64,000 nucleotides of DNA from Dehalococcoidia bacterium (lineage in GTDB: Bacteria > Chloroflexota > Dehalococcoidia > GIF9 > AB-539-J10): assembly GCA_046497565.1 (NCBI GenBank), contig JAWOFK010000057.1, positions 2,096-66,095 on the forward strand, in the 5' to 3' direction. Every line of letters begins with the position of its first letter. Position 1 is the first letter of the stretch. The notes beneath the pieces were generated by a model, which did not search any database, was not told the origin of the DNA, and worked only from the letters and a program-made list of their open reading frames with translations. Of this stretch, positions 1 through 59,941 are shown one piece after another. The translations under genes and the position numbers were made by a program.

Positions 1-2539
1 CATGGACGTCGAGGTACAAGGTGCCGGCCGCAAGCCCGGAGCTTACACCCGTGGGATTGCCAACATATTCAGCAACGGTAACCGCGGTAGTGTCGTCCCC
101 TCCGGTGACATTGGCTGACACATTGTCAGTCTGGGCAGATGCATCCTCACCATAGCCCCTGTCTGCCGTGCAGCCGGTAGGTTGGTTGGTCATTGCCGCC
201 CCAAGCCAGGGGGTGAAATCCACATTGTCGCTGACTTCGTCGCCTGTGCCATCGGGATTCGTAGCATGAGTCGGCCCACTGGCGTGGCCCCACCAGTTGT
301 GGGTGGCGTCTACTGGTTCATCACTACTGTTAACCAAGACGCCGTAGGGGTCGTTCTCAAAGATATTGTTGAAGCTGATATCAAGAGCACTGCCATAGAT
401 GTCGTTGAGGCCAATCCCGTAGCGGTTCTCGTTGATGACGTTGCCCAGGATGTTGAGGGTGCTTTCGTAAACATGTCCGACATATATACCGTCGCGATCC
501 TGGCCCTCGTGGTGAAGGTGGCCGGTGACCGTATTGTGAGTGATGGTGACGGTGCACGGAGCCAGGCTGATACTGGAGATGTGGATACCTGTGCCAAGGT
601 TATCGGTTATGGTGTTGTACTCGATGATGAGTGTGCTATCAATAACATGGCCGGCATAGATACCCGCACCGGCGTTACCGGTGATGATATTGCGTGCGAT
701 AGTGACGGTGCGCGGAGCATGGCCGATGTAGCCGATATAGATACCTGCGCCATTGTTATCCGTCATGGTGTTGTACTCGATGGTAACATCGCTGTCGCGG
801 ATCGATCCGACGTGGACACCAGTTGCGTTCGAAACACGGCAGTTACGGGAAATCGTGTTTGCCGCAGCCTCCGTATCGCCACCGATGGTGACGGTGCTGT
901 CAAGAATCTCGTCGATGTAGATTCCTGGACCTTCATTGCCCTCATCCTCCTCGTCGCCACCTATGGTGTTGCCTGCCATCTCAACGATACTACTTTGCTG
1001 GACATACTGAATGTAGATGCCTCTCTGGCCGTTGTCCTGGATACGATTGTCCTCGATGACCAGGGTGCTGGCCGAGACGGTGGTGACATGGATGCCACTG
1101 TCCGTGTTACCTGTGATGGTGTTGCCTGCGATGGTGACCGTCTTCGGGCCATCATCGATACGCCAGATGTAGATTCCATGGCCTCCATTGTCTGTGATCT
1201 GGTTGCGCTCGACGTTAACAGTGCTCTCCGAAATGTAGTGCAGATGTACGCCGTGACCGGGGTTGTTAGTGATCACGTTGTGCTCGATGGTAACCGTGCT
1301 GCCGCCCTCGATCGTCGCCGCCTCGCTGCGGATGCCGGCGTCCTCGCCGGTGATGATATTGTGGCTGACGGTCACCTCGCTTCCGTTATCGACGGACAGC
1401 AGTATGCCGGAATCAGGGATCGGGTTACCCCGATCAACCGTGAAGCCGGCGCCCTCCTCACCGCCGAAGACCACCGTCTGCCCGTCATCAAGGTCTATGG
1501 TGACCAGGCCGGTGATAGTGGTGTCATCCGCACCATCCGTGGACCGGAGGGTGAGAGACCTGGTAATGGTAACGTTCTCGGTGTATGTCCCGGCCTTGAC
1601 ATTCACGGTCCCGTCCACAGCCACGACGGTGATGCCGTGCTGGATGGTCTTAAACGGATCGTCAAAGGTCCCCGGGTTGCCGTCGTCGCCGTGGGTGTCG
1701 CAGACCCAGACTTGCGCGGGTCGCTCCCATCCCAGCCACTTCTCCCCGAGATACCATTCCATATCTACCCTTTCCTGCGTGGTAAGGGTACGGTCATAGA
1801 TGAGGATTTCGGCAATGTCGCCACCCCAATACTGTGAACGTGCTTGTGCCCCATTCATCCCACTGCCAATTATGAGGCCAGTAGCTGCAGCCATGGTACC
1901 AGTCTTTGTATCCTGCGCTACACCATCAACATAAGGTGCCGCTGTAGCGCCGTCATTCACCACAGCCAACAATCGTGCTGTGAGAACGGATTCGCCGGGA
2001 GTATTAGCGGCTATGTCACTCCATGCACTGCCATTACCGAAGAAGGTGGCGAAATCGTCGGACCTACTGCCGAAAAAGCCATGGAAATCGCTTGTCGCAC
2101 TCAACTGGATCAGTCGTGAGTGTTGATTGCTATCACCTGCACCTGCGGTATTGAGACCGACCGCAAAGATGGTCAGGGGTGTGGTATATGACCCGGAGTC
2201 CTCTACCAGATAGTCTGAACCATCAAACCTGACGACGGGCTTGCCTGCTAACGCATCCTCTACCCACTCAGGCTGATCCGCGGGTGTTCCCTGCGTGGCG
2301 TCATTGCCTTCACCCGACAGGTCGGGCCACGTGGCGACAGGATCACCGTCGCTCAACCCCGTGATAGCATCAGCGTCAAGGTGAAGGACTAGACCACTGG
2401 CAACAGGCGGCCCGTTGGCCGCAGCCACCGGTGTCCCCATCACCAGTCCCAAGCTCAGAACCAGCGCCAGGGCAACCAGGATTGCCGCGCTCCGCTCGCA
2501 ACGACGGATTGGGCTGGTATACCGTTTTGTCTTATTCAT
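1..2539 (-). CDS. secreted LamG-like / right-handed parallel beta-helix (PbH1) repeat protein; 3' end lies beyond window start
   Basis: Absent from the ORF track because it runs off the edge. The reverse complement from ATG 2539-2537 (GGAGGA at 2545-2550) reads MNKTKRYTSPIRRCERSAAILVALALVLSLGLVMGTPVAAA, a signal peptide. A LamG-type module follows, ending GGDIAEILIYDRTLTTQERVDMEWYLGEKW. Then come DPFKTIQHGI..DGTVNVKAGTYTENVTI and more than 12 repeats of ~22 aa (ITGNTDSGIHV, IQDNGQRGIYI, ITGNAGAGIYA). The frame stays open to nt 1. Confidence 0.85.
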   Translation of the reverse strand, partial: MNKTKRYTSPIRRCERSAAILVALALVLSLGLVMGTPVAAANGPPVASGLVLHLDADAITGLSDGDPVATWPDLSGEGNDATQGTPADQPEWVEDALAGKPVVRFDGSDYLVEDSGSYTTPLTIFAVGLNTAGAGDSNQHSRLIQLSATSDFHGFFGSRSDDFATFFGNGSAWSDIAANTPGESVLTARLLAVVNDGATAAPYVDGVAQDTKTGTMAAATGLIIGSGMNGAQARSQYWGGDIAEILIYDRTLTTQERVDMEWYLGEKWLGWERPAQVWVCDTHGDDGNPGTFDDPFKTIQHGITVVAVDGTVNVKAGTYTENVTITRSLTLRSTDGADDTTITGLVTIDLDDGQTVVFGGEEGAGFTVDRGNPIPDSGILLSVDNGSEVTVSHNIITGEDAGIRSEAATIEGGSTVTIEHNVITNNPGHGVHLHYISESTVNVERNQITDNGGHGIYIWRIDDGPKTVTIAGNTITGNTDSGIHVTTVSASTLVIEDNRIQDNGQRGIYIQYVQQSSIVEMAGNTIGGDEEDEGNEGPGIYIDEILDSTVTIGGDTEAAANTISRNCRVSNATGVHVGSIRDSDVTIEYNTMTDNNGAGIYIGYIGHAPRTVTIARNIITGNAGAGIYAGHVIDSTLIIEYNTITDNLGTGIHISSISLAPCTVTITHNTVTGHLHHEGQDRDGIYVGHVYESTLNILGNVINENRYGIGLNDIYGSALDISFNNIFENDPYGVLVNSSDEPVDATHNWWGHASGPTHATNPDGTGDEVSDNVDFTPWLGAAMTNQPTGCTADRGYGEDASAQTDNVSANVTGGDDTTAVTVAEYVGNPTGVSSGLAAGTLYLDVH
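2479..2505. repeat. REP-like family 1 unit (inverse orientation) inside the 5' end of the beta-helix gene
   Basis: GGATTGCCGCGCTCCGCTCGCAACGAC has the same ends (GATTGCC...CTCGCAAyGAC) as the units at 4867, 10770 and 63011. Confidence 0.7.
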
Positions 2540-2700
2540 GTTTTCCTCCTTTATTTTTCTCTTGTCAAGAGCTCAACTTAATTGTGACTCCGGCCCAAAG
2601 TCGACGGCTCCAGGCTCGAGTCATCGCAAACATCTTTGTTCAGTAAACCTTGTGTTAAGCCTGCCTCATTTCAGGCTGCCCTTCTTCATAGTTTCTCGCT

Positions 2701-2828
2701 GTCATTGCGAGCACTTGAATTACTGCATCCCCTGTCGTTGCGAGTCCCGGTTTATCGGGACGCGGCAATCTCCGGGATTCCGGAGCCTGTTCCGAGTAAA
2801 ACGAGGAACCTCAGCTCCTCGCAATGAC
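2701..2828. repeat. cluster of REP-like family 1 units
   Basis: GTCATTGCGAGC starts at 2701. A full unit GTCGTTGCGAG-TCCCGGTTTATCGGGA-CGCGGCAATCTC spans 2734-2772. The inverse half CTCGCAATGAC spans 2818-2828. Confidence 0.8.
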
Positions 2829-2935
2829 GAAAAACAATACAGCTTTTGCCCGGGCCAGGCATTGTTCTCTGCCCCTCGGCGAATTCTTGATCGACGTTCA
2901 TAACTCCCCCCGATTGCATCGGGGTGGGACCCTAA

Positions 2936-2958
2936 CCCCCTCTTACCTTAAGAGGGGG
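2936..2958. repeat. GC-rich hairpin (family 2, C-run/G-run type)
   Basis: CCCCCTCTTA-cct-TAAGAGGGGG forms a perfect 10-bp stem with a 3-nt loop. Hairpins of the same style occur at 52779-52814 and 63162-63182. Confidence 0.7.
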
Positions 2959-3105
2959 AGTTCAGGGGAACAGCAAGAATCCGCTCCGGGAATCTCACAT
3001 AGGCATTACCTCCTGTCCATTTTCAGGCTGTTTAACGCTGATTCTCAGTTCAATCTAGGGCGTTCTCCAACACTTCCACGATAATTACTCCAGCCCTTCG
3101 TATAA

Positions 3106-3114
3106 TGCTATAAT
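3106..3114 (+). promoter_or_regulatory. extended -10 element TGcTATAAT (a second TATAAT sits at 3101-3106)
   Basis: The sequence cgTATAATGCTATAATtc contains the same TGcTATAAT nonamer seen upstream of the ATPase operon and of the activase gene. No downstream target is proven. Confidence 0.3.
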
Positions 3115-3162
3115 TCATATTCGTATTTGTCAATAGGTCAGGAGTTTGCACGAATTTCGGTG

Positions 3163-3200
3163 GTCATTCCCAGTCCCGACTTGTGGGGACTGGCAATGAC
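3163..3200. repeat. REP-like family 1 variant, self-palindromic
   Basis: GTCATTCCCAGTCCCGACTTGTGGGGACTGGCAATGAC. The ends GTCATT/AATGAC are inverted. The core CCCGACTTGTGGGG resembles the core of the 63011 unit. Confidence 0.75.
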
Positions 3201-3255
3201 GTGTAGAGACGGGGGCAGTCGTTGATGGCACTTACTTTTTGGGGCCGTCTTCCTT

Positions 3256-3261
3256 TATAAT
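3256..3261 (+). promoter_or_regulatory. -10 box TATAAT 9 nt upstream of the ATG at 3271
   Basis: The sequence is ccttTATAATagtgcggagATG. A possible -35 TTACTT lies at 3232-3237 with an 18-nt spacer. This implies a very short leader or none. Confidence 0.35.
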
Positions 3262-3270
3262 AGTGCGGAG

Positions 3271-4821
3271 ATGAAATTGCTGCCCAGACTGGCTATTGTT
3301 GTGGGCCTCTGCCTTACGGCCGTGGCCCTGCCGGCTGTGCCGGTGCAGGCCGACGAAGAACCACCTCCGCCTTCTATCACCCTTGCCCCCTCCTCGGGAG
3401 TGGTCGGTACAGAGGTTACCGTCCGCGGCTATAATTTTGAGCCCGATGAGTGGGCCGACATTTACTATGCCGGGACCTGGATGACCGAAGCCCACACCAC
3501 TGGTGCAGAGACAAGTTTCACGGCGACCTTCTTCGTTCCCGAGAGCTACAGGGGAATCCATCAGGTGCTCGCTGAGGTAGGAGATGATACAGCAGACGCT
3601 TACTTCACGGTCTGGCCGGGGCTGACGGTCAGTCCCGAGGAGGGCCCCGTAGGCGGCACGGTTATCGTGACAGGCCGCGGGTTTGCCAGGGATGAAACGG
3701 GCATCGAGCTGAGGTATTACCTTAATGGCACCTATGAAGCGGTGGCCGATAATATCACGGCGGGCGCCGCAGGGGGGTGGGAGGAGAGCTTTGAGATTCC
3801 CCCTTCCACGAAAGGAAGTCATAAGATAGATGCCCGGGGCGACGATAGCAGCCTTGCCGCGGTCAGGCATACCACCTTTATGGTAACCCCGGGGATAAGA
3901 ACAGACGAATTATCGGGCAGCCCGGGAGAAAGCATAGCGATGACGGGCAGCGGATTTACCGCGAATGAGAGGAATATCAGGATACTGTTTGACGGAGAGG
4001 CGGTGGTCGAGGACATCTGGGCGGACGACAAAGGGTACTGGCAGGAACCCTTCGAGGTGCCCGAGAGGCCGGGAGGCAACTATAGCGTCACCGCCGAGGG
4101 AGACTGGACTAAAGAAGCAGACTTAGACGAGATCAGCTTCGAGCTAAGGCCCGGCATTGTGCTGTATCCCGACGAAGGGCATGTGGGCATGAACCTGACC
4201 GTTACCGGCGGCGGGTTTGCCCCCAACGAAGGTGTGGTCATCATGTACGAGGGCCATGAGGAAGCGACGGCTACGACTGATGACAAAGGCAGCTTCGAGG
4301 TAACTTTTCCTGTGCCCGAGAGCAGACATGGCAAGCGCGACGTGACGGCCGAGGATGGTCAGGCGAACGAGGCCGCCGCCGACTTCACCATGGAGTCACA
4401 CCCTCCCCCCACCCCGGAACTCATTTCCCCGCCCGACGGGGGCAGGGCGGGATTCGTGGGCAGGGTGAGGCCGAGGTTTGAGTGGTCCGAGGTGGAGGAC
4501 CCCAGCGGAGTCTACTATAATCTGCAAATAGCAACCAGTGCCAATGTCACGGACACCGGGGAATTCGTTGACCCCATAGTGACGAAGGAGGGACTGGTGG
4601 GAGCGAACTACACCCTGGAGAAACCAGTGAGCTATGGCACCTACTACTGGATGGTGCAGGCCGTGGATGGGGCGGAGAACGAGAGCGGCTGGAGCGAAGT
4701 CTATTGCTTCCAGGCCGGACTCTTGCCTCTGTGGGCATTCATTGTTATCATGGTCCTTGTAGTATCGGGCGGCGGTGGCGCCGCTTACATCCATCTGAAA
4801 AGAAAAAAATTGTATGATTGA
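3271..4821 (+). CDS. membrane-anchored cell-surface protein with four tandem Ig-like repeats
   Basis: The signal peptide is MKLLPRLAIVVGLCLTAVALPAVPVQA. Four ~90-aa repeats each carry G..V.V.G.GF..(D/N)E (GTEVTVRGYNFEPDE, GGTVIVTGRGFARDE, GESIAMTGSGFTANE, GMNLTVTGGGFAPNE). An FN3-like module follows (YYWMVQAVDGAENESGWS). The C-terminal TM segment is LLPLWAFIVIMVLVV, followed by KRKK. Confidence 0.85.
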   Translation: MKLLPRLAIVVGLCLTAVALPAVPVQADEEPPPPSITLAPSSGVVGTEVTVRGYNFEPDEWADIYYAGTWMTEAHTTGAETSFTATFFVPESYRGIHQVLAEVGDDTADAYFTVWPGLTVSPEEGPVGGTVIVTGRGFARDETGIELRYYLNGTYEAVADNITAGAAGGWEESFEIPPSTKGSHKIDARGDDSSLAAVRHTTFMVTPGIRTDELSGSPGESIAMTGSGFTANERNIRILFDGEAVVEDIWADDKGYWQEPFEVPERPGGNYSVTAEGDWTKEADLDEISFELRPGIVLYPDEGHVGMNLTVTGGGFAPNEGVVIMYEGHEEATATTDDKGSFEVTFPVPESRHGKRDVTAEDGQANEAAADFTMESHPPPTPELISPPDGGRAGFVGRVRPRFEWSEVEDPSGVYYNLQIATSANVTDTGEFVDPIVTKEGLVGANYTLEKPVSYGTYYWMVQAVDGAENESGWSEVYCFQAGLLPLWAFIVIMVLVVSGGGGAAYIHLKRKKLYD

Positions 4822-4866
4822 GGGAGGGTCATTGGCAGGAGGCGCCGGGAGACAAGCCCATTCCGC

Positions 4867-4952
4867 GAGATTGCCGCGCTCCGCATGCGCTGCGCTCGCA
4901 ATGACACACTGGTTTGTCATTGCGAGTCCCGATTCATTGACACGAATGAATC
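4867..4952. repeat. pair of REP-like family 1 units (inverse then forward)
   Basis: GAGATTGCCGCG-CTCCGCATGCGCTGCG-CTCGCAATGAC spans 4867-4905. GTCATTGCGAG-TCCC-GATTCATTgacacgAATGAATC spans 4916-4952. Confidence 0.8.
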
Positions 4953-5001
4953 CAGACTAAACGAATAAGAAGGAAACAGGGCACAAAAGAAGGAGGGAAA
5001 A

Positions 5002-6180
5002 ATGAAGCTAACAGTTATCGGGCTGGGACAATGTGGAAGCCGGATTGCCGACCATTTTGCCAGGATGAATTTCAAGGCGCGCACTCAGCGCAAGGCAACC
5101 ATAGCCCCCACGGTTATTGCCGTGAATACGGACCAGGCGGACCTGACGGGGCTGAGGTTCATCAAGGACGACTTCCAGCACCGGGTGCTCCTCGGCTTGC
5201 GCCAGACACTGGGCCACGGGGTAGGCAAGATAAATGAACTGGGGGCACAACTGGCCAAGGAGGACGGCGATAAGGTGCTGGACGCCGTGAAAGCCAGCCC
5301 GCAGTTTTACGAGACACATGCCTTTCTTGTGGTGGCTGGCGCCGCCGGCGGCACGGGCTCAGGAGCTTTGCCCATCATATGCAGGGCGATTAAGGAGCGC
5401 TACATCAGCAAGCCGGTCTACGCCCTGGCAGTCCTGCCTTTCGAGCATGAGCAGACCACGGAGTCCAGAAGCGTATTCAACACCGCTACCTGCCTGAAAT
5501 CCACCTACGATATAGTGGATGCCGTCTTTCTGGCCGATAACCAGAGGTATCTCAGAAAAGACGCCAGTCTCGTCAGCAACATAGATACAATCAACAGGAT
5601 GATCGTGGAGCCTTTCTACGACTTGATGTGCGCCGGGGAAGTAACGAAGGCCAAATATGTGGGTGCCCGGACCATAGACGCCGGGGACATAATCGCCAGC
5701 CTGGAGGGATGGACCACTATCGGCCTGGGTAGACATGAGCTTCCTTCATTCCGCTTCCCCTGGGAGATAAGGAAGAGGAGTTTCCGCGAAAAAGCGCTGG
5801 AGAGCTTCCGGGGGACACAGGCGTTAGACGCCACCATCTCCGACCTTTCCCTCACCTGTAGCCCCAAAGATGCCGGCAAAGCCATATATATCCTGTCCGG
5901 TCCGGAAAGAGAGCTGAACATGGACATGGTCAAGAGCGTTGCCGATTACGTCAAGGAGCTGGCAGCCAATGCCTTGATTCGAGGCGGCGACTTCCCCGGG
6001 GAAAAGCACTACATCGACGTTACCCTGATTCTGTCACAGTTGTCCTTTGTGCCCAGGATAAAAGACTTCTACGAGGCAGCCACGCAGTATGCTCAAGAGC
6101 ATCAGGGGCAGATAGAGGAAACCAAGAAGAGGATTGAGTCCCTGGCCGAGTTCAGCAAGGACCTGCCCACGCTGGAATGA
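5002..6180 (+). CDS. tubulin/FtsZ-superfamily GTPase, CetZ-like
   Basis: An AGGAGGG SD precedes the ATG. Motifs in order are MKLTVIGLGQCG, AVNTDQADL, GHGVG, the tubulin-type G box AGGTGSG (res 115-121, nt 5344-5364) and PVYALAVLP. No division or cell-wall genes are adjacent. Confidence 0.8.
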   Translation: MKLTVIGLGQCGSRIADHFARMNFKARTQRKATIAPTVIAVNTDQADLTGLRFIKDDFQHRVLLGLRQTLGHGVGKINELGAQLAKEDGDKVLDAVKASPQFYETHAFLVVAGAAGGTGSGALPIICRAIKERYISKPVYALAVLPFEHEQTTESRSVFNTATCLKSTYDIVDAVFLADNQRYLRKDASLVSNIDTINRMIVEPFYDLMCAGEVTKAKYVGARTIDAGDIIASLEGWTTIGLGRHELPSFRFPWEIRKRSFREKALESFRGTQALDATISDLSLTCSPKDAGKAIYILSGPERELNMDMVKSVADYVKELAANALIRGGDFPGEKHYIDVTLILSQLSFVPRIKDFYEAATQYAQEHQGQIEETKKRIESLAEFSKDLPTLE

Positions 6181-6199
6181 GACATGGAAAACCCTAAAT

Positions 6200-6252
6200 G
6201 CAAAGGTCAAAATCAAAACGACAACCCGAAACGCAGAGTTTTTGACCTTTGC
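6200..6252. terminator. long hairpin between convergent genes (candidate bidirectional terminator)
   Basis: GCAAAGGTCAAAA (6200-6212) pairs perfectly with TTTTGACCTTTGC (6240-6252), giving a 13-bp stem and 27-nt loop. T-rich sequence lies around it. Confidence 0.4.
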
Positions 6253-6310
6253 TCCGTCATTTTGCACTTCTGTTTTTGCGAGAACCAGTTTCATCCCCGC
6301 CGGGAGGGAC

Positions 6311-6736
6311 CTATTCATTGGCTACCTTTATGCCCACCCCGATCCCCAGGGGCACAGCGACCTCGGTCAACACCTTCTGGACGGCTTCCCCGAGAGACTT
6401 CTTCTGCTCTCTGGTGATTTGATATTGGGTTTTTAACAGCCGGGCTATGATATTGGCTGCCTCGAACTGCCGGTCGATTCGCTCCGGCTCCTCTCGCACC
6501 AGCTTCCTGAACTTGACTCTGAGCAGAGCGATTTCCTCATCCAGCCCCTCGACATTAGAAGCTTCCTCAAGCTCAAGTTGTTCTACTACGTCCAGAGCAC
6601 AGCTGTAAAAACCACGCCCACTATCCTTTCCTTTGCTTCTTTCTATTGCTGCCATGAGAGTTACGAGTCCTCCGACTACGCCGCGGACTCCCAATGGAGT
6701 ATGACCTATGAGGGGAAGGAGAACCGGCAGAGCCAT
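6311..6736 (-). CDS. hypothetical protein
   Basis: This is the only long ORF in the gap. It has a charged helical middle (LDEEIALLRVKFRKLVREEPERIDRQFEAANIIARLL). No family was recognised. An internal ATG at 6655 has a better SD (GGAGGA), so the start is uncertain. Confidence 0.4.
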   Translation of the reverse strand: MALPVLLPLIGHTPLGVRGVVGGLVTLMAAIERSKGKDSGRGFYSCALDVVEQLELEEASNVEGLDEEIALLRVKFRKLVREEPERIDRQFEAANIIARLLKTQYQITREQKKSLGEAVQKVLTEVAVPLGIGVGIKVANE

Positions 6737-7894: not shown

Positions 7895-8519
7895 GCTTCA
7901 ATACTATACCCTCAAGGACATTGGCGACGTCTTCGCCCCGGTCGGTGGCGCTTTCCAGGTGCTCATAGATTTCACGCCACTTGATTACCTCACAGGCATC
8001 CATGTGACAGACCTCGAACAACTCAGCCAGAGCGGCATGCAGCACGTCGTCAGCCTCGTTTTCCAGGCTGTTAATCTCCACACACTGCTTGAGGACCCAT
8101 GGAAAATGGTCACGGTGGCGCAGACGAGGCACCGCCTCGTTCAACCTGTGAGTAACCCTGGCTACGATTCGGGCTAGCTGCCGGGCCCGTTCCGTGGGCT
8201 GGATAATACGATAAAGGTGGGCTGTTCTGCCCGCAGCCTCAATGAAGTCCATTACATCATCCAGGCTATGGGCCAGGAGAGTAATATCCTCTCTGTCGAT
8301 GGGGGTAACAAAGGTGCGGTGTACCCGCTGTATTATCTCATGGGTTATGACATCGCCCTGGTGCTCAAAATCCTTGAGTTGCTTTGCTTTGGCTTCCACA
8401 TCTTCATAATTGTCAAAAAGGTCAACCAGCTTTTCTGCGGCAACCACCAGATTGCTCGTATCCTGTTCGAACAGGTCATAAAACTCCGTATCTCTGGGGG
8501 TGAAGGGAAATCTAGGCAA
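7887..8519 (-). CDS. DUF47 (PhoU-like) protein, Pit accessory
   Basis: The sequence FTPRDTEFYDLFEQ...HQGDVITHEII...TPIDREDI fits DUF47. It overlaps pit by 8 nt, the classic DUF47-PiT pairing. Confidence 0.85.
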   Translation of the reverse strand: MPRFPFTPRDTEFYDLFEQDTSNLVVAAEKLVDLFDNYEDVEAKAKQLKDFEHQGDVITHEIIQRVHRTFVTPIDREDITLLAHSLDDVMDFIEAAGRTAHLYRIIQPTERARQLARIVARVTHRLNEAVPRLRHRDHFPWVLKQCVEINSLENEADDVLHAALAELFEVCHMDACEVIKWREIYEHLESATDRGEDVANVLEGIVLKHA

Positions 8520-8665
8520 CGTGTACCTCCGTCAATAGACACTTCCCGTCCGAAGTTCTCTTCGGCTGCGCCACGTATTATAACACACCACAGGAAATCG
8601 CCACCATGCGCTGCACTCGGCAGTACCTCACTGACACATATTTTTGTCATTGCAACGTTGAACAG

Positions 8666-10054
8666 CTAACCCTTCTCTTCCTTCCACCACTTCTTCAGCC
8701 TGGCGGCAATCTCTTTTTCATAGCCCTGGTCGCCGGGGATGTAATAGCGTTTTCCCTGGAGGGAGGGCGGCAGGTTCTGTTGGCTGACGAAATGGTCGGG
8801 GTAGTCGTGGGCATATTTATAGCCCTGTCCATACCCCGTCCGACGCATGAGGTCGGTTACCGGGTTACGCAGGTGGAGCGGCACAGGCTCATTTCGGCCA
8901 CGCTGTACATCCTGTTGGACCCGGGAATACGCCCGGTACAACGAGTTGCTTTTGGGAGCAGCTGCCAGATAGACCACTGCTTGCGCTAAAGCCAGGTTCC
9001 CTTCGGGTAAGCCCACGAAATGCACTGCCTGCTGGGCGGCTACCGCTATCACCAGCGCCTGCGGGTCAGCCACGCCGACATCCTCGGAAGCAAAGCGTAC
9101 CAGGCGACGGGCAATGTAGAGAGGGTCTTCGCCGGCTTCCAGCATACGTGCCAGCCAGTACAAAGAAGCATCCGGGTCGGAGCCGCGTAACGATTTATGC
9201 AGTGCCGAAATAAGGTCATAATGCTGGTCACCACTCTTATCATAGAGTAAAGCACGATGCTGTAGCGCCTGTTCAATGGCCGACAGGTCTATCGGCCGCA
9301 AGCCCTCGCCGTCAGGCAAAGCAGCAGACGCTGCCATCTCCAGAGCGTTCAACGCCACGCGGGCATCCCCGTTAGATGCGGTGACCAGATGCCCCAGAGC
9401 CTCCTCGCTTATGCCGATCCGGAGCTTACCCAGTCCTCTTTCTCCATCCTGAATGGCCCGCTCCACGATGAGCCTGACCTCTTCATCGCTCAGCAGATTC
9501 AACCGAAAGACCCGGCAGCGGGAAAGAAGCGGAGCGATGACTTCGAAGGAGGGGTTCTCTGTAGTCGCCCCCACAAAAGTCACCGTGCCGCTTTCCACGA
9601 AAGGCAATACGGCATCCTGCTGCGCCTTATTGAAGCGGTGAATCTCATCAATGAAAAGAATGGTCCGCTGGCCTGATACTTTTAGCCTCTTTTTAGCTTC
9701 GGCAATAACATGGCGCAAATCGGCCACCCCCGCACTCACGGCGCTCAAAGGGCTGAAATGCGCTCTGGTGATGCTGGCGATAATATGAGCCAGAGTCGTC
9801 TTGCCGCTACCCGGCGGTCCCCAGAAAATCATGGAGGGCAACTGGTCCGCTTCAATACATTTGCGAAACACCCTTCCCTCGGCAACCAGATGCTCCTGTC
9901 CCACAAACTCGTCAAAGGTCTGCGGCCGCATCCGTGCCGCCAGAGGCATTCCGGGAGGCAAATCCTTTTCCGCCGGCAGTTCAAAAAGAGGCATCCTGTC
10001 CATCAATAAAGCCCTTCCAGTTTCCTTGTACGATACAGTTCCATCAGTCTCCAT
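8666..10054 (-). CDS. rarA: replication-associated recombination protein A (AAA ATPase)
   Basis: Motifs are Walker A GPPGSGKTTLAHIIA, ILFIDEIHRFNK, ATTENPSFEV and the MgsA C-terminal domain. The track start at 10078 (MQSGRSND) lies inside a REP unit, so I use the METDG start at 10054. A later start at MDRMPLFE is also possible. Confidence 0.9.
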   Translation of the reverse strand: METDGTVSYKETGRALLMDRMPLFELPAEKDLPPGMPLAARMRPQTFDEFVGQEHLVAEGRVFRKCIEADQLPSMIFWGPPGSGKTTLAHIIASITRAHFSPLSAVSAGVADLRHVIAEAKKRLKVSGQRTILFIDEIHRFNKAQQDAVLPFVESGTVTFVGATTENPSFEVIAPLLSRCRVFRLNLLSDEEVRLIVERAIQDGERGLGKLRIGISEEALGHLVTASNGDARVALNALEMAASAALPDGEGLRPIDLSAIEQALQHRALLYDKSGDQHYDLISALHKSLRGSDPDASLYWLARMLEAGEDPLYIARRLVRFASEDVGVADPQALVIAVAAQQAVHFVGLPEGNLALAQAVVYLAAAPKSNSLYRAYSRVQQDVQRGRNEPVPLHLRNPVTDLMRRTGYGQGYKYAHDYPDHFVSQQNLPPSLQGKRYYIPGDQGYEKEIAARLKKWWKEEKG

Positions 10055-10721: not shown

Positions 10722-10808
10722 GTCATTGCCAGCACCTGAAAGGTGCGCGGCAATCTCATGCCCCTCACGAGATTGCTTCGTCCCGGTTAAATCGGGACTC
10801 GCAATGAC
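10722..10808. repeat. REP-like family 1, two units in inverted orientation (large palindrome)
   Basis: GTCATTGCCAGC-ACCTgaaAGGT-GCGCGGCAATCTC is followed by an 11-nt spacer and then GAGATTGCTTCG-TCCCGgttaaatCGGGA-CTCGCAATGAC. Confidence 0.85.
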
Positions 10809-16010: not shown

Positions 16011-17371
16011 AGCCTATCTTCTTCGTTAAATTTGGGAGACGACCTTCGCCAGGAACCTTTCCTCAAAACCAGGACACCCCCCAAAGCTGCTACTACGGCT
16101 AATGCCGCTAACACGGCAGGCAGGACGGGATGAGATTCCCACGCTCCGCTCCCAATGACTGTGCCGGCTGACAGCGTCGCTCGCCAGTTGGCATCAAGCC
16201 CATCTAAATCAAAACCATAAACTTCGGTCAAGGCCTCATCATGGGTGCTACCCTGCTGGAAGAGAGTCAACAACTCCAGCATCTTGTCCTGTCCGTAATT
16301 ATCCAGGAGATATTCCACGAGGCTATAGCTCTGGGCATAGGAAAGGCGAGCTTTCTCAGTCTCGGCGGAAAATGGGCCACACAGGCTGAGTACTGAGATG
16401 AGTTCGTCTTCAAGAATAGCCCTTTCCAGGGAGGAGCGGAGAGAAGGGGTAAGCTCACCCTCGTTGTACGTAGCTAACCCTTCATCAAGCCAGGTCGGAA
16501 GCCGCCCATACGGGCCAAAAGTTGCTTGATAAACAACCAGATGCGTTAACTCATGAACCAGGGCCCGCTTGCCCCAATCAAGTCTCCCCGGTGGAATACC
16601 GATAGCGATCGTACTAAATTCAGGAAAAGCGACCCCGCCAGTCCATTCTTGAGGAAAAATCATGGCTCCCTGCAAATCGCTGGCGGACGCATAAATGTAT
16701 ATCTTGATGGGCCGTTCCGGATGAGTGCCGATTTCCTCAGTCAGCCTGGTAAGCCCGGCCTCGCAGACATCCATCAGGTCTCGTGCGAAGGAAGAACCCC
16801 CTTCGTACCAGAAAACGGTCAGCTCATCACCCTGAGAAATCTGCGACTCTGACACGAACCCACTACTGGTCAGGCTCTGCCAAACATAGCGATCATCATC
16901 AAAATGCATTGTCTCGGGATAGGTCTCCAGCCTGGTCCCTTCAGCGTCCTTAATCACCCACCAATATATGACTTCAGCACCGGTGGGCAAGCTCGCTTGT
17001 CTCATATCCCACACCCAACCGGCATCTATTCTGGTTGCCGGAGTAAAGTCAGCCCAGCCCTCACTGACAACTTCAGCGTACTTCATCTTGTCCACCTGGT
17101 AACAAAGACGGACATCAACAATATCAGCGCTGCTCTCAGCTTCAAGAGTGAACATAGCCTGGCGGGGGAAATCTATCTCTACATCGCTAGCTAGAACCGT
17201 AATACCGGCCTCGGCCTGTGTACCTGTCACCGCGAGCCGAAGCTCTGAGCCCGGCGACGTGTCCATTAATTCCCCGCCAAGCCTGTATTGCGCGAGATTA
17301 TTCGCCCCCACGGAAGCAGGGACCAGCAGCAACAGCAAAGTTACAGCGATCAACGCAAGACGTCTAATCAT
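16007..17371 (-). CDS. secreted/membrane-anchored HExxH zinc metallopeptidase (peptidase-MA-like)
   Basis: The signal peptide is MIRRLALIAVTLLLLLVPASVGA. The metal motif is HELTHLV. A C-terminal TM segment (VLPAVLAALAVVAALGGVLVL) is present. It overlaps both neighbours by 4 nt. Confidence 0.7.
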   Translation of the reverse strand: MIRRLALIAVTLLLLLVPASVGANNLAQYRLGGELMDTSPGSELRLAVTGTQAEAGITVLASDVEIDFPRQAMFTLEAESSADIVDVRLCYQVDKMKYAEVVSEGWADFTPATRIDAGWVWDMRQASLPTGAEVIYWWVIKDAEGTRLETYPETMHFDDDRYVWQSLTSSGFVSESQISQGDELTVFWYEGGSSFARDLMDVCEAGLTRLTEEIGTHPERPIKIYIYASASDLQGAMIFPQEWTGGVAFPEFSTIAIGIPPGRLDWGKRALVHELTHLVVYQATFGPYGRLPTWLDEGLATYNEGELTPSLRSSLERAILEDELISVLSLCGPFSAETEKARLSYAQSYSLVEYLLDNYGQDKMLELLTLFQQGSTHDEALTEVYGFDLDGLDANWRATLSAGTVIGSGAWESHPVLPAVLAALAVVAALGGVLVLRKGSWRRSSPKFNEEDRL

Positions 17372-18466
17372 TTGCCTACTTGGGACCGAAGATAAGCAGT
17401 GATGAATCCATCTAGTTCGCCATCCAATACGGCATCAGGATCGTGAACTTCATAATTGGTGCGCAGGTCCTTCACCATTTTATATGGATGGAGCACGTAA
17501 CTTCGGATTTGATTCCCCCAACCCGCTTCGATACGCTCGCCCTTGATCTTGGCTCTTTCTTCCTCCCTTTTCTGATGGTCGAGCTCCAGCAGACGAGAAT
17601 AAAGGATCTTCAGAGCAGCTTCCTTATTTTGATGCTGAGACCTCTGGCCCTGGCAGATAGCCACCAGTCCTGTGGGCAAGTGAGTTATCCTGACAGCACT
17701 GCTTGTCTTCTGCATATGTTGCCCGCCAGGCCCGCTGGACCGGAAAGTATCCACCTTCAGGTCTTCCGGCTCTATCTTGATATCCACTGCCTCTTCAGCC
17801 TCAGGCAGCACTTCCACCAGGACAAAGGATGTGTGGCGGGAATGGTCGGAATCAAAGGGAGAAAGCCGGACCAACCTGTGCACCCCATGTTCACCTTTGA
17901 GATAGCCATAGACATAACTGCCCTTAATCTCCACGATAGCGCTCTTGATACCGGCCTCTTCGCCAGAGGACACATCTAAGACCTCAGCCTCATAATCATG
18001 CCGCTCCGCCCACCGCAAGTACATCCGGAGCAACATGTCGGCCCAGTCCTGAGACTCTGTCCCACCAGCACCGGCATGAAGGGCAAGCATGGCATTGCGA
18101 GCATCATAGTCACCGACGAAGAGCTGTTGACTCTCCAACTGCTCGAACCGGGAACTGAGCTTCTTTAGTTCCAGTTGCAGCTCTCCCTTAAGAGAGTCAT
18201 CATCCTCTCCCATAGCCAGACCAATCATCTCCTGAAGGTCGGTGGCTTTCTTCTCCAGCCCGCGCCAGGCATTAACCAAGTCTTTCTTGACCGCAAGCTG
18301 ACGCATAATAGCCTTAGCCCTGGCCGGGTCGTCCCAGAAATCGGGTCGGGCTGACTCCAGCTCTATCCTGGCAATTTCCCTTTCCTTGCCAGCGATATCA
18401 AAGATGCACCATGATGTCTGAGATTCGACGAAGCAGGGCTTCTAGCTCTTCTTTCTCTTCTTCCAT
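17368..18466 (-). CDS. prfB: peptide chain release factor 2, requires programmed +1 frameshift
   Basis: Frame 0 from ATG 18466 reads MEEEKEELEALLRRISDIMVHL and then TGA. Skipping one base continues DIAGKEREIARIELESARPDFWDDPARAKAIM, which joins the 312-aa ORF. That ORF carries SPF-region sequence and SGPGGQHMQKTSSAVRITHLPTG. Confidence 0.95.
18398..18403 (-). promoter_or_regulatory. RF2 +1 recoding site CTT TGA (followed by T)
   Basis: The forward strand reads TCAAAG at 18398-18403, which is CTTTGA on the coding strand. The frames on either side are both RF2-like. Confidence 0.9.
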
Positions 18467-19450: not shown

Positions 19451-19762
19451 ATGCCGGAAGAAATCACCAGTAGCGTAGAAGCCATCGAAGTCGAAGCCCA
19501 CAAGATACTAGAAGAGGCGAGGGCCAGAGCCAACCAAATTCTCGTCGAAGCCAGGGAAGAAGCTAACAAGATACTATCGTCTGAGTTGCCGATGGACGAG
19601 GCAAAAGCTTTCTCTGACAAGTTTGTAAGCAGCGCTAAAGCGGAAGCGGAGAAAAAAATCGAGGATTCTGAGAAGAAAGCCGCCGAGATCAGGGCCACCG
19701 CTGATGACAAAGTAAAGGAAATTACCAAGCTCGTCGTGAATATTGTCACGGGCAGAAGTTAA
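19451..19762 (+). CDS. atpH: A/V-type ATPase small coiled-coil stalk subunit (H/G-like)
   Basis: It is 103 aa, Ala/Glu/Lys-rich and helical (EAHKILEEARARANQILVEAREEANKIL), and is the first gene of the operon. Confidence 0.7.
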   Translation: MPEEITSSVEAIEVEAHKILEEARARANQILVEAREEANKILSSELPMDEAKAFSDKFVSSAKAEAEKKIEDSEKKAAEIRATADDKVKEITKLVVNIVTGRS

Positions 19763-19763
19763 C

Positions 19764-21749
19764 ATGCCACCTCTAATCGTCAATACAGCTGACCCTATGG
19801 CCAAAGTCAGGGTCGTGACGACCAAGGATTACTCCACCAAGACCACCAAGACTCTCCATACCGCCGGTGTTCTTCACGTCGAGGAAAGCGAAGAGCTGAA
19901 GCCGGTAGATAAAGAGGCACTTGAAAGGGAAAGAAGAGCAATCGGCGAATTATTGACGGGCATTAACGACGTATTAGCTTACATACCAAAAGGAGAAAGA
20001 GTATCGCTGACAGAAGATGTGAAGGTTATATATACCAGGCCTTTTGACGAAGTCGACAGCGAAGTAAGGTCACTATGCACCAAGCTCAGCAACATGCATC
20101 AAAGCGCCACCAAACTCGACGAGGATGTTAAGGCGCTGACAGAACTGGCCAGGTATCTGGGCTCCCTTGAGCAACAGGCTGACATCAGGTTGGGAGACCT
20201 GAATTTTTCAGGAAGTTATCTTTTTTCCCAAGTCTTTGTGTTTCCCAACGACGTATTTGAAACTTCGTATTCTAAACTCAGAGACTACATACTCGACGAC
20301 GTTTCAGCCACAGTAGAAAACGAGACTGTCTTGTATGCCATTGCCAAAATAGAAGGCCGGGAAACTATAGAGTCCATAGTCAAGGATGCCGGAGGCAAGG
20401 TTTTACCGATACCAGAGGAGAATTTGACCCTGAGGGAATTTCTCGAAGTAGCCGACAGTAGAATTCACAATCTTGAACAGGAGTTGACGAAGCTTCAAGC
20501 CGACATTGAAAGTAAGACCAGAGAGAACCTAGAGAAGCTGGTCCTTTTCCGCGAGGCGTTATCAGCAGAAGCGGAAAGATTAGCAGTCTTAGCTAAAGCC
20601 TCGGAGGCAGAATACGTCACTCTGATCGAGGGGTGGATTCCCGAGAACAATGTCGAAGCTACAATTTCTGAACTCAAGGAGAACATAGGCTACGTGTTTA
20701 TTGACACGAGGAAGCCGGAGCAAGCGGAGGAGCCACCCACCAAAATGAAGAACCCGGCCGCTCTTAAGCCGTTCGAAGTCATTGTGAACCTGTTTGCTAC
20801 GCCAAAGTATAAGGAATGGGACCCCACTCCGATAATAGCGTACTCCTTCGCCCTTTTTTTTGGCCTCATGCTGGGCGACGTAGTGTACGCTGCCCTCCTC
20901 ATGCTATTTGCATACCGCGGACTGCGAATTCTCGTCGACGACCCTGAATCCGAAGGGTTTAAGCTATTTCAAAGGATAATCTACATTAGCGGTGGAGTCG
21001 CCCTGGTCATTGGTATGCTTACCGGAAGCTATTTGGGCAACTTCTACGAGTTCTTCGGAATCGAGAGTTTAGCACTTGCCCAGGCAATTCAAGCAGTTCT
21101 TGCAGACCCCGTGTCGTTCATAGGCATCTCATTATTAATAGGCCTGGTTCACGTGAACACAGCCCATGTGCTCGCACTTATTAGAGGAATAAAGGAGAGG
21201 CAGAAAGCGGTAGTGCCCAACAAAGCCGGTCTATTCATACTTCAGTTCGGTGCCATACCCTTGATTCTGGATATCATACTGGGCATACGTATCCCGGTGT
21301 TAGCTGAACAAACCACCCTGCTAGTTGCCGCGATTATCCTGGGCTTAGTATTAATTGTCGTCTCATCCCTGCTGGAGAAGGGTCCTTTCCTGGGCGGAAT
21401 TTTCTGGCTATTTGACCTGACCGGGATACTGGGCGACGTTATGTCATATGCCAGGCTGGCCGGTGTGGGGCTGGCCACGTATTACCTGGCATACTGCTTT
21501 AACCTCATGGCAGTGTTATTACGCGACATGATGCCGGTCGGAATAGTCCAGGCTATCGTTGGCACATTGATATTCATATTAGTTCTGCTTGTCGGACACC
21601 TGCTTAATCTGGCGCTCAGCGGCATAACGTGTTTCGTCCACTCCCTGAGACTATGCTTTGTGGAGTTCATGTTCAAGTTCTATGACGGAGGCGGCAAGGC
21701 ATACAGCCCGTTTCGGTTGAAACCTCGTCCTGTATCTGTCAAAGTATGA
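19764..21749 (+). CDS. atpI: A/V-type ATPase subunit I (membrane a-subunit)
   Basis: A ~330-aa soluble N-terminal domain is followed by a polytopic C-terminal half with SYARLAGVGLA (the essential Arg region). The start is ambiguous: 19743 in the track, 19764 immediately after the upstream stop, or 19797 (MAKVRVV). Confidence 0.9.
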   Translation: MPPLIVNTADPMAKVRVVTTKDYSTKTTKTLHTAGVLHVEESEELKPVDKEALERERRAIGELLTGINDVLAYIPKGERVSLTEDVKVIYTRPFDEVDSEVRSLCTKLSNMHQSATKLDEDVKALTELARYLGSLEQQADIRLGDLNFSGSYLFSQVFVFPNDVFETSYSKLRDYILDDVSATVENETVLYAIAKIEGRETIESIVKDAGGKVLPIPEENLTLREFLEVADSRIHNLEQELTKLQADIESKTRENLEKLVLFREALSAEAERLAVLAKASEAEYVTLIEGWIPENNVEATISELKENIGYVFIDTRKPEQAEEPPTKMKNPAALKPFEVIVNLFATPKYKEWDPTPIIAYSFALFFGLMLGDVVYAALLMLFAYRGLRILVDDPESEGFKLFQRIIYISGGVALVIGMLTGSYLGNFYEFFGIESLALAQAIQAVLADPVSFIGISLLIGLVHVNTAHVLALIRGIKERQKAVVPNKAGLFILQFGAIPLILDIILGIRIPVLAEQTTLLVAAIILGLVLIVVSSLLEKGPFLGGIFWLFDLTGILGDVMSYARLAGVGLATYYLAYCFNLMAVLLRDMMPVGIVQAIVGTLIFILVLLVGHLLNLALSGITCFVHSLRLCFVEFMFKFYDGGGKAYSPFRLKPRPVSVKV

Positions 21750-21786
21750 ACGCAGTTAAAGAATACTTAAGTAACGGAGGTGTAAG

Positions 21787-22266
21787 ATGCTAATCAGCCC
21801 CGAATCCCTGGCAATCCTGGGAGGTGCCATAGCCCTGGCTGGCGGACTGGCCGGCTCAGCCATGGGCATCGGTACCGCCGGCTCCGCCGGGGCAGCTACG
21901 CTGTCTGAGGAACCGGGACAACTCAGAAATGTGATTCTCCTCGCGTCACTGCCAATGACGCAGACCTTCTATGGTCTCATAACGCTGATACTTATTTTGA
22001 CAACGGTACGTGGGAACCTCGCTGAGGTGGCCAACGGCACCGGCATGGGTTTCGCAGTACTGGGCATCGGTATTATAGTCGCCCTGGCTGAATGGGTTTC
22101 AGCAGCTTACCAGGGCGCGGTGTGCGCTTCCGGTATCTCGCTCTTGCCCAAGACAAAGGGGAGGATACTGACTAACTCCATGATGCTGGCCGTGTTTGTC
22201 GAGCTAATAGGTGTGCTGGGACTGGTGTTTGCCATAATGGCACTGGCTATGTTGGGGCTTTTCTAA
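21787..22266 (+). CDS. atpK: A/V-type ATPase proteolipid subunit K (double hairpin, 4 TM)
   Basis: It is 159 aa, Gly/Ala-rich with 4 TM segments. Carboxylate E139 sits in FVELIG. Confidence 0.9.
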   Translation: MLISPESLAILGGAIALAGGLAGSAMGIGTAGSAGAATLSEEPGQLRNVILLASLPMTQTFYGLITLILILTTVRGNLAEVANGTGMGFAVLGIGIIVALAEWVSAAYQGAVCASGISLLPKTKGRILTNSMMLAVFVELIGVLGLVFAIMALAMLGLF

Positions 22267-22279
22267 AGGATTGATAAGA

Positions 22280-22861
22280 ATGGAAAAAATAAGTGAAGCC
22301 GTTGTCGGCAAAGTGAAGCAGGACGCCCAGAACATAGTAACACAGGCTGAGGAGAAAGCACAGGAAGAGATAGATAAGGCCAAAAAACAGCGAGAGGCGA
22401 GGTTCGAGGAAGAGAAGAGCAGAATGCTGGGAGAGGCAGAGGCGGAGGCGGCCAGAATCCTGGCTCAGGCTTCTATAAAAGCGCGGCAGCAGCTATCGAG
22501 CGCGAAAGCTGACACAATTTCCAAGATGATTGACGGGGCACAGCAGGAATTGTCCCAAATCTCAAGCGACGAAAGTCATTTGCTGAACTTGATTAAAGAA
22601 GCTATGGAAGGCCTGGGTGTGGATAAAGGCAGAATTTACGTTGCTCCCAAAGATGTGAGCACCGCAAAAAAACTCCTTGAAGCGGACAAGAATTTATCCG
22701 GCAAGATAGTGGATATCAGGGAAACCGATTGCCTGGGAGGCGTCATAGCTGAGGATATTGAAGGAAAGCTTAGAATAGACAACACCTACGAAACCAGACT
22801 CGAGATGCTGTTGCCGAAGTTGTTGCCCGAGATAAACAGGAAGCTGTTCGAAGCTCCATAA
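22280..22861 (+). CDS. atpE: A/V-type ATPase subunit E
   Basis: It has a long N-terminal helix (KVKQDAQNIVTQAEEKAQEEIDKAKKQ) and a globular C-terminus. The ATG at 22280 lies 9 nt after AAAGGA; the track start at 22271 is TTG. Confidence 0.85.
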   Translation: MEKISEAVVGKVKQDAQNIVTQAEEKAQEEIDKAKKQREARFEEEKSRMLGEAEAEAARILAQASIKARQQLSSAKADTISKMIDGAQQELSQISSDESHLLNLIKEAMEGLGVDKGRIYVAPKDVSTAKKLLEADKNLSGKIVDIRETDCLGGVIAEDIEGKLRIDNTYETRLEMLLPKLLPEINRKLFEAP

Positions 22862-22870
22862 AGGAACATC

Positions 22871-23905: not shown

Positions 23906-23906
23906 C

Positions 23907-24260: not shown

Positions 24261-24289
24261 AATCATAGCAACAGCAGGAGGTTGAAGAT

Positions 24290-26041: not shown

Positions 26042-26057
26042 GAAAAGGAGGCCTCTT

Positions 26058-27455: not shown

Positions 27456-27472
27456 AATCAAGTAGAGAAGCA

Positions 27473-28102: not shown

Positions 28103-28106
28103 ACAA

Positions 28107-32487: not shown

Positions 32488-32498
32488 ACGAGTCTATA

Positions 32499-32972: not shown

Positions 32973-33101
32973 TAAACCTATATCATATGCTGATTCTCAG
33001 TTAAGTGCAACGGCCTGTTTCGATTAATGTCAAGAAACTCGGGCACGACAACCTGGGTTGACTATTGGATTTGGCTAAGAATAAAATACCCGGGGGCTAA
33101 C

Positions 33102-59485: not shown

Positions 59486-59487
59486 AC

Positions 59488-59932: not shown

Positions 59933-59941
59933 TAAAGAAAC

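Follow-up and report, generated by a model that had tools for sequence, protein, structure and literature searches.

The 64,000-nt stretch of contig JAWOFK010000057.1 from a Dehalococcoidia bacterium (hereafter the window) carries on its forward strand, at 5002..6180, a gene for a 392-residue protein which belongs to the CetZ branch of the tubulin/FtsZ superfamily and is a bacterial member of it, in a family that a 2023 review of CetZ treats as archaea-specific (PMC9856176). An earlier note made from the letters of the window (the original prediction) had proposed a CetZ-type rather than an FtsZ-type tubulin homologue, and this is now supported by profile, sequence and fold. The family is class-wide, vertically inherited and under purifying selection. 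With a probability of roughly 0.6, we read the protein as a bacterial CetZ that would form membrane-associated filaments organising cell shape and the envelope, docked through its C-terminal tail and linked to a membrane partner, with division left to FtsZ and FtsA.

A bacterial CetZ by profile, sequence and fold

In the Pfam scan, the N-terminal GTPase domain matches PF00091 (Tubulin; E 4.1e-29, 102.7 bits), and residues 189-361 match PF21011 (CetZ_C; E 1.6e-19) with 70.5 bits against a gathering cut-off of 21.6, the match running over positions 3-179 of the 180 in the profile. The three top matches of a phmmer search against the sequences of the Protein Data Bank (PDB) are the three solved CetZs, each aligned over its full length, i.e., CetZ1 (4b46) at 2.3e-49, CetZ2 at 5.9e-29 and Methanosaeta CetZ at 8.4e-19, while the best FtsZ match stands at 4e-9 and BtubB and the tubulins at about 5e-5. 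An AlphaFold2 model was built from 23 relatives, with a predicted local distance difference test (pLDDT) score of 89.8 and a predicted template modelling score of 0.88. Foldseek places CetZs at ranks 1-4 for this model (CetZ1, CetZ2 and Methanosaeta CetZ), followed by FtsZs, CetZ1 being first with an E-value of 6.9e-33, a TM-score of 0.92 on the target and a root-mean-square deviation of 2.2 Å. Close relatives are named "tubulin-like protein CetZ" by the Joint Genome Institute, and the family label is already in the databases.

The gene starts with ATG, and a Shine-Dalgarno sequence (AAGGAGG) lies just 5′ of it at 4990-4996. All of the FtsZ/tubulin motifs listed in the original prediction are present in the order given there, GLGQCG at residues 7-12, VNTD at 41-44, GHGVG at 71-75 and AGGTGSG at 115-121, and the G box is indeed of the tubulin/CetZ type (GTGSG), not the GTGTG of FtsZ. 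The N-terminal pattern of Haloferax CetZ1 that had been given for comparison was essentially right, the alignment showing MKLAMIGFGQAGGK..AVNS..GHGVG..NELGAE..GGGTGSG..PVYGLGILP. The features of the gene are:

5002..6180 (+), cetZ-like gene: 392-aa CetZ-family tubulin-superfamily GTPase of the Dehalococcoidia clade
5020..5037 (+), T1 loop GLGQCG, aa 7-12; G7, G9, Q10, C11 and G12 invariant in 77 orthologues
5344..5364 (+), T4 signature (G box) AGGTGSG, aa 115-121; G116 to G121 invariant in the orthologues
5677..5688 (+), T7 loop DAGD, aa 226-229; D229 aligned to the catalytic E218 of CetZ1
6052..6156 (+), long C-terminal helix, aa 351-385, after CetZ_C, from the secondary structure of the AlphaFold2 model
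6160..6177 (+), disordered C-terminal peptide DLPTLE, aa 387-392; putative docking motif resembling the FtsZ C-terminal peptide

Across the 77 orthologues (55-94% identity), 85 positions are invariant, including every residue of the T1 (GxGQCG), T3 (GHGVG), T4 (GGTGSG), T6 (DNQR) and T7 (DxGD) loops. D226, G228 and D229 of T7 are among them, and the column of the T7 acid holds D or E in 23 of 23 diverse relatives. In Haloferax, the E218A substitution in CetZ1 (E212A in CetZ2) leads to hyperstable filaments (PMC13556191). Pairwise ratios of nonsynonymous to synonymous substitution rates (dN/dS) against eight orthologues are between 0.05 and 0.12, and these low ratios together with the invariant loops argue for a functional, constrained GTPase rather than a decaying import. 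A complete guanosine triphosphate (GTP)-binding and T7 apparatus under strong purifying selection is shown at the level of sequence; the loss of GTPase or T7 catalytic residues, which the original prediction had named as evidence that would speak against it, is not seen.

Other branches of the superfamily were considered and rejected. For canonical FtsZ, the TIGR00065 profile scores 60.2 bits against a cut-off of 295.2 and covers the N-terminal domain alone, the Pfam scan gave no FtsZ_C match above threshold, the G box reads AGGTGSG instead of GGGTGTG, and no fts or mur gene was found among the annotated open reading frames (ORFs) of the window, in agreement with the original prediction on the neighbourhood. 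BtubA/B and the eukaryote-type tubulins gave partial N-domain matches (E 5e-5 to 3e-4) and no Tubulin_C match. The poorly characterised bacterial FtsZ-like families, which had been offered as the alternative to CetZ, also fail: the FtsZl-1/FtsZl-2 profile (Tubulin_2, PF13809) reaches 19.5 bits (E 6e-4), below its gathering cut-off of 27, and no stretch passes alone.

This sub-threshold Tubulin_2 match and one weak match in the PHROG search (E 3e-4) are what a plasmid or phage segregation tubulin (TubZ/PhuZ-like), or a member of the membrane-remodelling FtsZl-1/FtsZl-2 family, would have in its favour. However, the PHROG in question is of unknown function and no phage-tubulin family was matched, the 60 best PDB sequence matches listed include neither TubZ nor PhuZ, and the plasmid matches are all CetZ paralogues of haloarchaeal megaplasmids at 30-34% identity. 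The gene also lies in a housekeeping region of the chromosome, with no TubR-like or mobile-element genes among the annotated ORFs, and we regard such an origin as extremely improbable.

Host, distribution and place in the CetZ tree

One genome per species of the Genome Taxonomy Database (GTDB) was scanned with an alignment of close relatives as the query, and at least 549 species genomes carry a relative; all locus counts given below out of 80 refer to the best 80 of these. With few exceptions, the best 80 relatives (55-94% identity) come from metagenome-assembled genomes (MAGs) labelled Dehalococcoidia, Dehalococcoidales or Chloroflexota. The exceptions are labelled WS1, Deltaproteobacteria, unclassified "bacterium" and Chloroflexia, and two of these loci (L024 and L038) keep the synteny with the Ig/TIG partner gene that is described in the next section. 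A Dehalococcoidia MAG in NCBI encodes the identical protein on a contig of 77 kb, under the name "tubulin/FtsZ family protein", and relatives with matching bacterial neighbours lie on contigs as long as 1.39 Mb. The genes of the window are bacterial: RF2, RpoD (σ70) and DnaG, from which a bacterial context had been read in the original prediction, are confirmed, and RuvA/RuvC (RuvABC), YebC, RecO and Ffh add to them.

An assembly chimera, or a recent and possibly decaying archaeal acquisition without an established function in its host, would agree with a family that is otherwise archaeal. It would also agree with a GC content at third codon positions (GC3) above that of the neighbouring genes, the cetZ-like gene and its partner having the highest values of the 15 genes checked (0.72 and 0.69 vs. 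0.47-0.64). However, 3001-6300 does not stand out from the window in its tetranucleotides (r 0.759 vs. a mean of 0.769), without the break at 3-6.3 kb that a chimera would be expected to leave, and the GC content there is unremarkable. The identical protein on a 77-kb MAG contig, the syntenic relatives on contigs of up to 1.39 Mb, the at least 549 carrier species with dN/dS of 0.05-0.12, and a bacterial clade of its own with 30-34% identity to the archaeal sequences all stand against this explanation, for which we see next to no likelihood. A foreign origin is an unlikely source of the high GC3 because of the same conservation and synteny; codon optimisation for high expression would be another possible source. 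The host is a Dehalococcoidales bacterium and not a chimera. Of the horizontally acquired element suggested by the original prediction, the CetZ in a true bacterial chromosome stands, while the isolated or recent import does not, since the family is class-wide, present in at least 549 genomes and under purifying selection. CetZ reviews give the family an archaeal (euryarchaeal) host, whereas the host here belongs to Dehalococcoidales; this difference concerns the known distribution of the family, not the protein itself.

In a library of representatives at 50% identity, the window type forms one cluster, followed by graded relatives at 30-45% identity. A neighbour-joining (NJ) tree of 101 sequences and 364 columns, with a validated FtsZ outgroup and 200 bootstraps, places all sequences tied to Dehalococcoidia in one clade of 40 sequences (Group A; 86% bootstrap), distinct from the archaeal CetZs sampled. 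Within Group A, a deep subclade with 99.5% support consists of sequences from SAR202, Chloroflexi or Dehalococcoidia, found by profile search on contigs of up to 4.4 Mb. Where members of the other groups could be named, they were archaeal, i.e., Thermococcus, Thermococci and a euryarchaeon. Haloferax CetZ1 and CetZ2 fall in the sister group of Group A, and the Methanosaeta and Thermococcus CetZs are basal, in an ordering with low support (4.5% for archaeal monophyly, 15.5% for Group B alone). The tree yields a bacterial clade, with a poorly supported order relative to the archaeal CetZs.

Santana-Molina et al. (2023) reported the CetZ-like proteins of Chloroflexota-Dehalococcoidia as sparse and paraphyletic, and gave no further analysis of them (PMC9871819). 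This is not what we see in the NJ tree, where Group A appears monophyletic. Beyond that study and the reports on D. mccartyi discussed below, nothing more was found in the literature on tubulin homologues of Dehalococcoidia.

Two further observations concern the wider family. In two CetZ-like representatives, P0121 (499 aa) and P0126 (480 aa), a conserved C-terminal extension of about 100 residues (…YEKA·E·QPSLSFEG…, about columns 500-600 of the 23-sequence alignment) replaces the LPxL tail. Many haloarchaeal CetZ paralogues lie on non-mobilizable megaplasmids, e.g., at 31939-33084 of Haloferax volcanii pHV4 (NC_013966.1), and such megaplasmids are possible vehicles for the spread of the CetZ family.

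Membrane partners, the C-terminal peptide and a possible role in cell shape

The gene directly upstream on the same strand encodes a membrane-anchored surface repeat protein, as had been proposed. This partner begins with a signal peptide (aa 1-27), continues with four IPT/TIG-like repeats (cores at aa 46, 128, 219 and 306; period about 87 aa) and an Ig/FN3-like domain (aa 398-485), and ends in a transmembrane (TM) helix (aa 482-507) and a basic cytoplasmic tail of nine residues, HLKRKKLYD. Its domain matches are TIG, Ig_Rha78A_N and Big_6 in Pfam and GxPGS Ig-like in NCBIfam. The features of this neighbourhood and of the related loci are:

3271..4821 (+), partner gene: 516-aa type-I membrane surface protein (Pfam, NCBIfam, translation, hydropathy)
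4714..4818 (+), C-terminal TM anchor of the partner (nt 4714-4791) and its cytoplasmic tail (nt 4792-4818) (translation, hydropathy)
4822..5001 (+), intergenic spacer of 180 nt, with an inverted repeat pair like repetitive extragenic palindromes (REP-like) at 4895-4926 and the Shine-Dalgarno sequence at 4990-4996
Loci L081-L086, about 8322-9272, SAR202 genes for type-II bitopic proteins, directly 3′ of the cetZ-like gene
Locus L079, 8731-9936 and 9998-11173, CetZ-like pair
Locus L076, 2120-3295 and 6328-7509, CetZ-like pair
Locus L078, 1322-2497 and 5579-6784, CetZ-like pair

In 65 of the 80 loci, down to about 57% CetZ identity, tblastn places an Ig/TIG gene immediately 5′ of the cetZ-like gene and in the same orientation, and five loci without it are incomplete on that side, so that the neighbourhood with the surface protein is indeed conserved. 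The identity of the partner (31-63%) falls faster than that of the CetZ-like protein, as expected of a surface protein. The TM anchor with a basic/aromatic tail of 6-17 residues is kept in 59 of 75 upstream ORFs, the tail motifs being clade-specific (…RRRIYYY, RDRVGLYD and RIRAISKKGGWSS). The downstream genes (PHO4, PhoU-like, MgsA, AMMECR1 and radical SAM) are syntenic only among closer relatives. A convergent 141-aa gene at 6311-6736 (-), with no significant Pfam match, is found downstream in 35 of the 80 loci at variable distance.

Two SAR202 lineages, whose loci are otherwise unrelated, carry a gene for a type-II bitopic protein immediately 3′ of the cetZ-like gene and in the same orientation. 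From its N-terminus, this protein consists of a short basic tail (MR·SRAPE·RG), a TM helix, a linker rich in Pro and Ala and an ectodomain of about 180 residues. The two versions are 36% identical and belong to no Pfam family. Among the paralogues, the L072 type sits between the genes gap and dnaX, the P0128 type sits between nuo and rlmN, and neither these nor P0273 have a membrane-protein neighbour. The gene downstream of the L072-type copies, annotated "AAA+", was considered as a partner and rejected, being dnaX. The P0136-type paralogue, likewise lacking a neighbour of the partner kind, precedes two consecutive same-strand ftsH genes (AAA and Peptidase_M41; L089/L090, 6409-10312). In some Dehalococcoidaceae-like genomes, two or three CetZ paralogues lie close together; the pair of locus L079 is a tandem of a divergent "type 2" copy (P0132-like, ending in DELPTLD) and the main type.

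The hairpins of the spacer between the partner and the cetZ-like gene were considered as a regulator and rejected. The core of the REP-like palindrome, GTCATTGCGAG, has 14 copies in the window vs. 1.1 expected, with sites including 2495-2828, 4895-4926, 10722-10808, 58389 and 63039, many of them between long ORFs. Because of these 14 copies, the weak fold z-score of -2.0 and the absence of an Rfam match, the element is a dispersed repeat rather than a specific regulator.

The linkage to the partner could be taken to mean that the CetZ-like protein serves solely as a scaffold that positions or assembles the Ig/TIG surface protein (e.g., an adhesin or an S-layer-associated protein), with no general role in shape. 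The linkage is tight and long-lived (65 of the 80 loci, to about 57% CetZ identity), the cytoplasmic tail of the partner is conserved, SAR202 has an analogous pairing, and the two genes share the highest GC3 of the 15 checked. Archaeal cetZ genes also adjoin envelope or surface genes, those of CetZ2 and of the Thermococcales CetZs lying next to genes for pili or surface proteins (PMC9856176). However, paralogues and one whole subclade without such a neighbour keep the catalytic residues and the tail, and a tail of 6-17 residues offers a very small interaction surface, so we hold an exclusive scaffold of this kind to be quite unlikely.

Of 78 orthologues, 77 carry the motif [DEGQ][LI]PxL in the C-terminal tail. 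Across the 77 aligned orthologues, P389 and L391 do not change and the residues before them vary; the pLDDT of the tail is about 56 in the AlphaFold2 model, i.e., of low confidence. The motif is found in 30 of the 40 Group A sequences vs. 2 of 56 archaeal-type sequences; in many archaeal CetZs, the C-terminus is a related peptide of acidic and hydrophobic residues (…IDSLL, …EPLF or …QPLF). The C-terminal peptide of FtsZ is the docking site for FtsA, ZipA and SepF, and the FtsZ C-terminus …DYLDIPAFLRKQAD was confirmed on the full-length chain 9isk_A. The tail of the Ig/TIG partner was considered as the receptor of the LPxL peptide in the primary model and rejected. The partner-less L072-type and P0128-type paralogues keep the peptide, so that a universal factor is a more likely receptor than the partner tail, and the most evident candidate here is FtsA, by analogy with FtsZ.

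The biology of these hosts bears on what such a protein might do. Dehalococcoidales and the SAR202 cluster are reported to share an ancestor in which the dcw/peptidoglycan genes were lost, while basal orders keep them; mraZ-mraW-ftsA-ftsZ stay adjacent after this loss, and the wall of D. mccartyi is an archaeal-like surface layer (S-layer) (PMC10608941). The two lineages of Group A are exactly those reported to be without dcw/peptidoglycan genes (PMC10608941). D. mccartyi 195 carries further "FtsZ" genes (DET0589 and DET0636) in addition to FtsZ (DET0343) beside FtsA (DET0342) (PMC5102406). In proteomics of strain BTF08, an "FtsZ/Tubulin GTPase" distinct from FtsZ, btf_0551, was detected, and it was lower in co-cultures where the cells went from discs to barrels; the tubulin-like protein and FtsZ of D. 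mccartyi were co-regulated, and the authors discussed them as division proteins (PMC8163811).

That co-regulation raises the question of whether the CetZ-like protein is instead an extra division protein, i.e., a second FtsZ-like ring component that would be recruited by FtsA and aid FtsZ at the septum, and would not determine shape. The resemblance of its D/E-L/I-P-x-L tail to the FtsZ tail DIPAFL, the retention of FtsA in these lineages and the ftsH genes beside one paralogue lineage point in the same direction. However, the protein is CetZ and not FtsZ by profile, sequence and fold, and archaeal CetZs act in shape and motility rather than division (PMC9856176, PMC13556191). The conserved neighbour is a surface protein, and no division gene is found among the annotated ORFs of the window or of the L072 context. 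We therefore judge a septal role unlikely.

The reading we prefer, that of a shape- and envelope-organising CetZ, would work as follows. The protein would polymerise head-to-tail, driven by GTP as in archaeal CetZ1/2, with D229 of one subunit completing the active site of the next, and dynamic filaments would run beneath the cytoplasmic membrane, where they would organise the cell shape and envelope of bacteria that are free of peptidoglycan and have an S-layer-like wall. Having no membrane-binding segment of its own, the CetZ-like protein would dock on an adaptor through its D/E-L/I-P-x-L tail; the prime adaptor candidate is FtsA, which is kept beside ftsZ and binds the similar FtsZ tail. The Ig/TIG type-I protein with its short basic tail could be a lineage-specific link between the filaments and the surface, or else their cargo, and in SAR202 the unrelated type-II bitopic protein could take the equivalent role. 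Division itself would remain with the canonical FtsZ and FtsA.

Several points weigh against this reading. The polymerisation, localisation and shape role of the bacterial members are extrapolated from Haloferax. The likeness between the tail and the FtsZ peptide is a short-motif similarity, which could be convergent or coincidental. The link to the Ig/TIG partner is evidence from gene order, across intergenic gaps that range from 11 to 616 nt between loci, and several Group A lineages have no membrane-protein neighbour. By its G-box pattern, no canonical FtsZ is found in the window or in the 80 loci, nor is FtsA present in the window or the loci compared, the presence of FtsA and FtsZ being taken from the literature. 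Finally, DET0589, DET0636 and btf_0551 are not among the best 120 matches of a search with a Dehalococcoidaceae-like orthologue, all of these being environmental sequences with at least 79% identity, and the literature on the locus tags gave no further evidence of a link, so that the three proteins are candidate members of the clade.

As a more tentative and rather speculative extension, the wall-losing ancestor of Dehalococcoidales and SAR202 might have adopted or retained an archaeal-style envelope toolkit, in which a CetZ recruited by its FtsZ-like tail, and coupled to the S-layer through short-tailed bitopic surface proteins, took over the control of shape; if so, no bacterial CetZ system would have been known before it, and the cell architecture of the two domains would have converged. 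Apart from this extension, a large and ecologically important bacterial class, which includes the SAR202 ocean lineage and relatives of the bioremediation genus Dehalococcoides, has its own CetZ clade, and the range of that clade matches the lineages reported to lack peptidoglycan, making the protein a candidate for setting shape in wall-less, S-layer-bearing bacteria. In two papers on CetZ, envelope-associated localisation is described and no mechanism of attachment is given; the tail peptide and the bitopic partners are two specific starting points for learning how the filaments are brought to the membrane. The result is also relevant to how the tubulin superfamily evolved, i.e., to the direction and age of CetZ transfer between domains. 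As far as the literature searched shows, the Ig/TIG partner, its SAR202 analogue and the FtsZ-like terminal peptide have no earlier description, and the same holds for the wide spread of the bacterial clade, its apparent monophyly and its match to wall-less lineages. The CetZ identity as such is less novel than the original prediction implied, being already in database labels and in the mention of Dehalococcoidia CetZ-like proteins in PMC9871819.

A few features elsewhere in the window are recorded here. Within 19743-28577, genes for subunits I, c, E, C, A, B and D make up a complete operon for an A/V-type (archaeal-type) ATPase, so that this bacterial window has an archaeal-style system besides CetZ; a DUF61 gene (28107-28577) follows the ATPase subunits. 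The DUF61 family is mostly archaeal. Two tiles have atypical tetranucleotide profiles, 1-3300 (r 0.41) and 59401-62700 (r 0.48) vs. the window mean of 0.77, and may be variable or inserted regions. A 551-aa ORF at 182-1837 has no Pfam match and no homologue in the 80 related loci. The RF2 ORF at 17368-18306 (-) begins at position 32 of the PCRF profile, a start that fits the programmed +1 frameshift read in the original prediction.

Comparison with known tubulin homologues

The closest known counterparts are CetZ1 (4b46) and CetZ2 (4b45) of Haloferax volcanii, which share with the window protein the Tubulin plus CetZ_C architecture, the fold, the GGTGSG signature and an equivalent T7 acid (D229 in the window, E218 and E212 in Haloferax). 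All are cytoplasmic proteins free of TM segments, and in each the C-terminal tail finishes with a short peptide of hydrophobic character. They differ in host (archaeal vs. bacterial), in sequence (about 32-34% identity) and in clade. In the T1 loop, the window protein has GQCG, as do tubulin and Methanosaeta CetZ, whereas Haloferax CetZ1/2 have GQAGG. The tail ends in LPxL in the window clade and in …(D/E)(S/P)L(F/L) in archaeal CetZs. Next to the cetZ-like gene, the window clade keeps a gene for an Ig/TIG type-I membrane protein, in contrast to the purine/F420 or pilus genes beside archaeal cetZ. The paralogue pairs of Dehalococcoidaceae-like genomes recall the multiple CetZ paralogues of haloarchaea.

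The Dehalococcoidia CetZ-like proteins mentioned by Santana-Molina et al. (2023) are almost certainly the same proteins as the window clade; in that study, the C-terminal CetZ profile matched Chloroflexota sequences at about 1e-10 (PMC9871819). In comparison with that description, the present analysis finds the family in at least 549 genomes, as a clade that is monophyletic at 86% in the NJ tree and extends over Dehalococcoidales and SAR202, with a partner gene and a tail motif.

The extra tubulin-family protein of D. mccartyi, btf_0551, a possible orthologue of the window protein, likewise occurs besides FtsZ in the same class; the co-regulated gene reported near it encodes a hypothetical protein three genes away. 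Bacterial FtsZ shares the superfamily fold (Foldseek E about 1e-21) and a similar plan of the tail, acidic-aliphatic-Pro-x-hydrophobic, as in DIPAFL of FtsZ (9isk_A) compared with DLPTL, DIPSL and DIPLL. However, FtsZ differs in its GGGTGTG G box, its FtsZ_C domain and its ftsA/dcw neighbours, and according to the literature a separate FtsZ is kept in these lineages.

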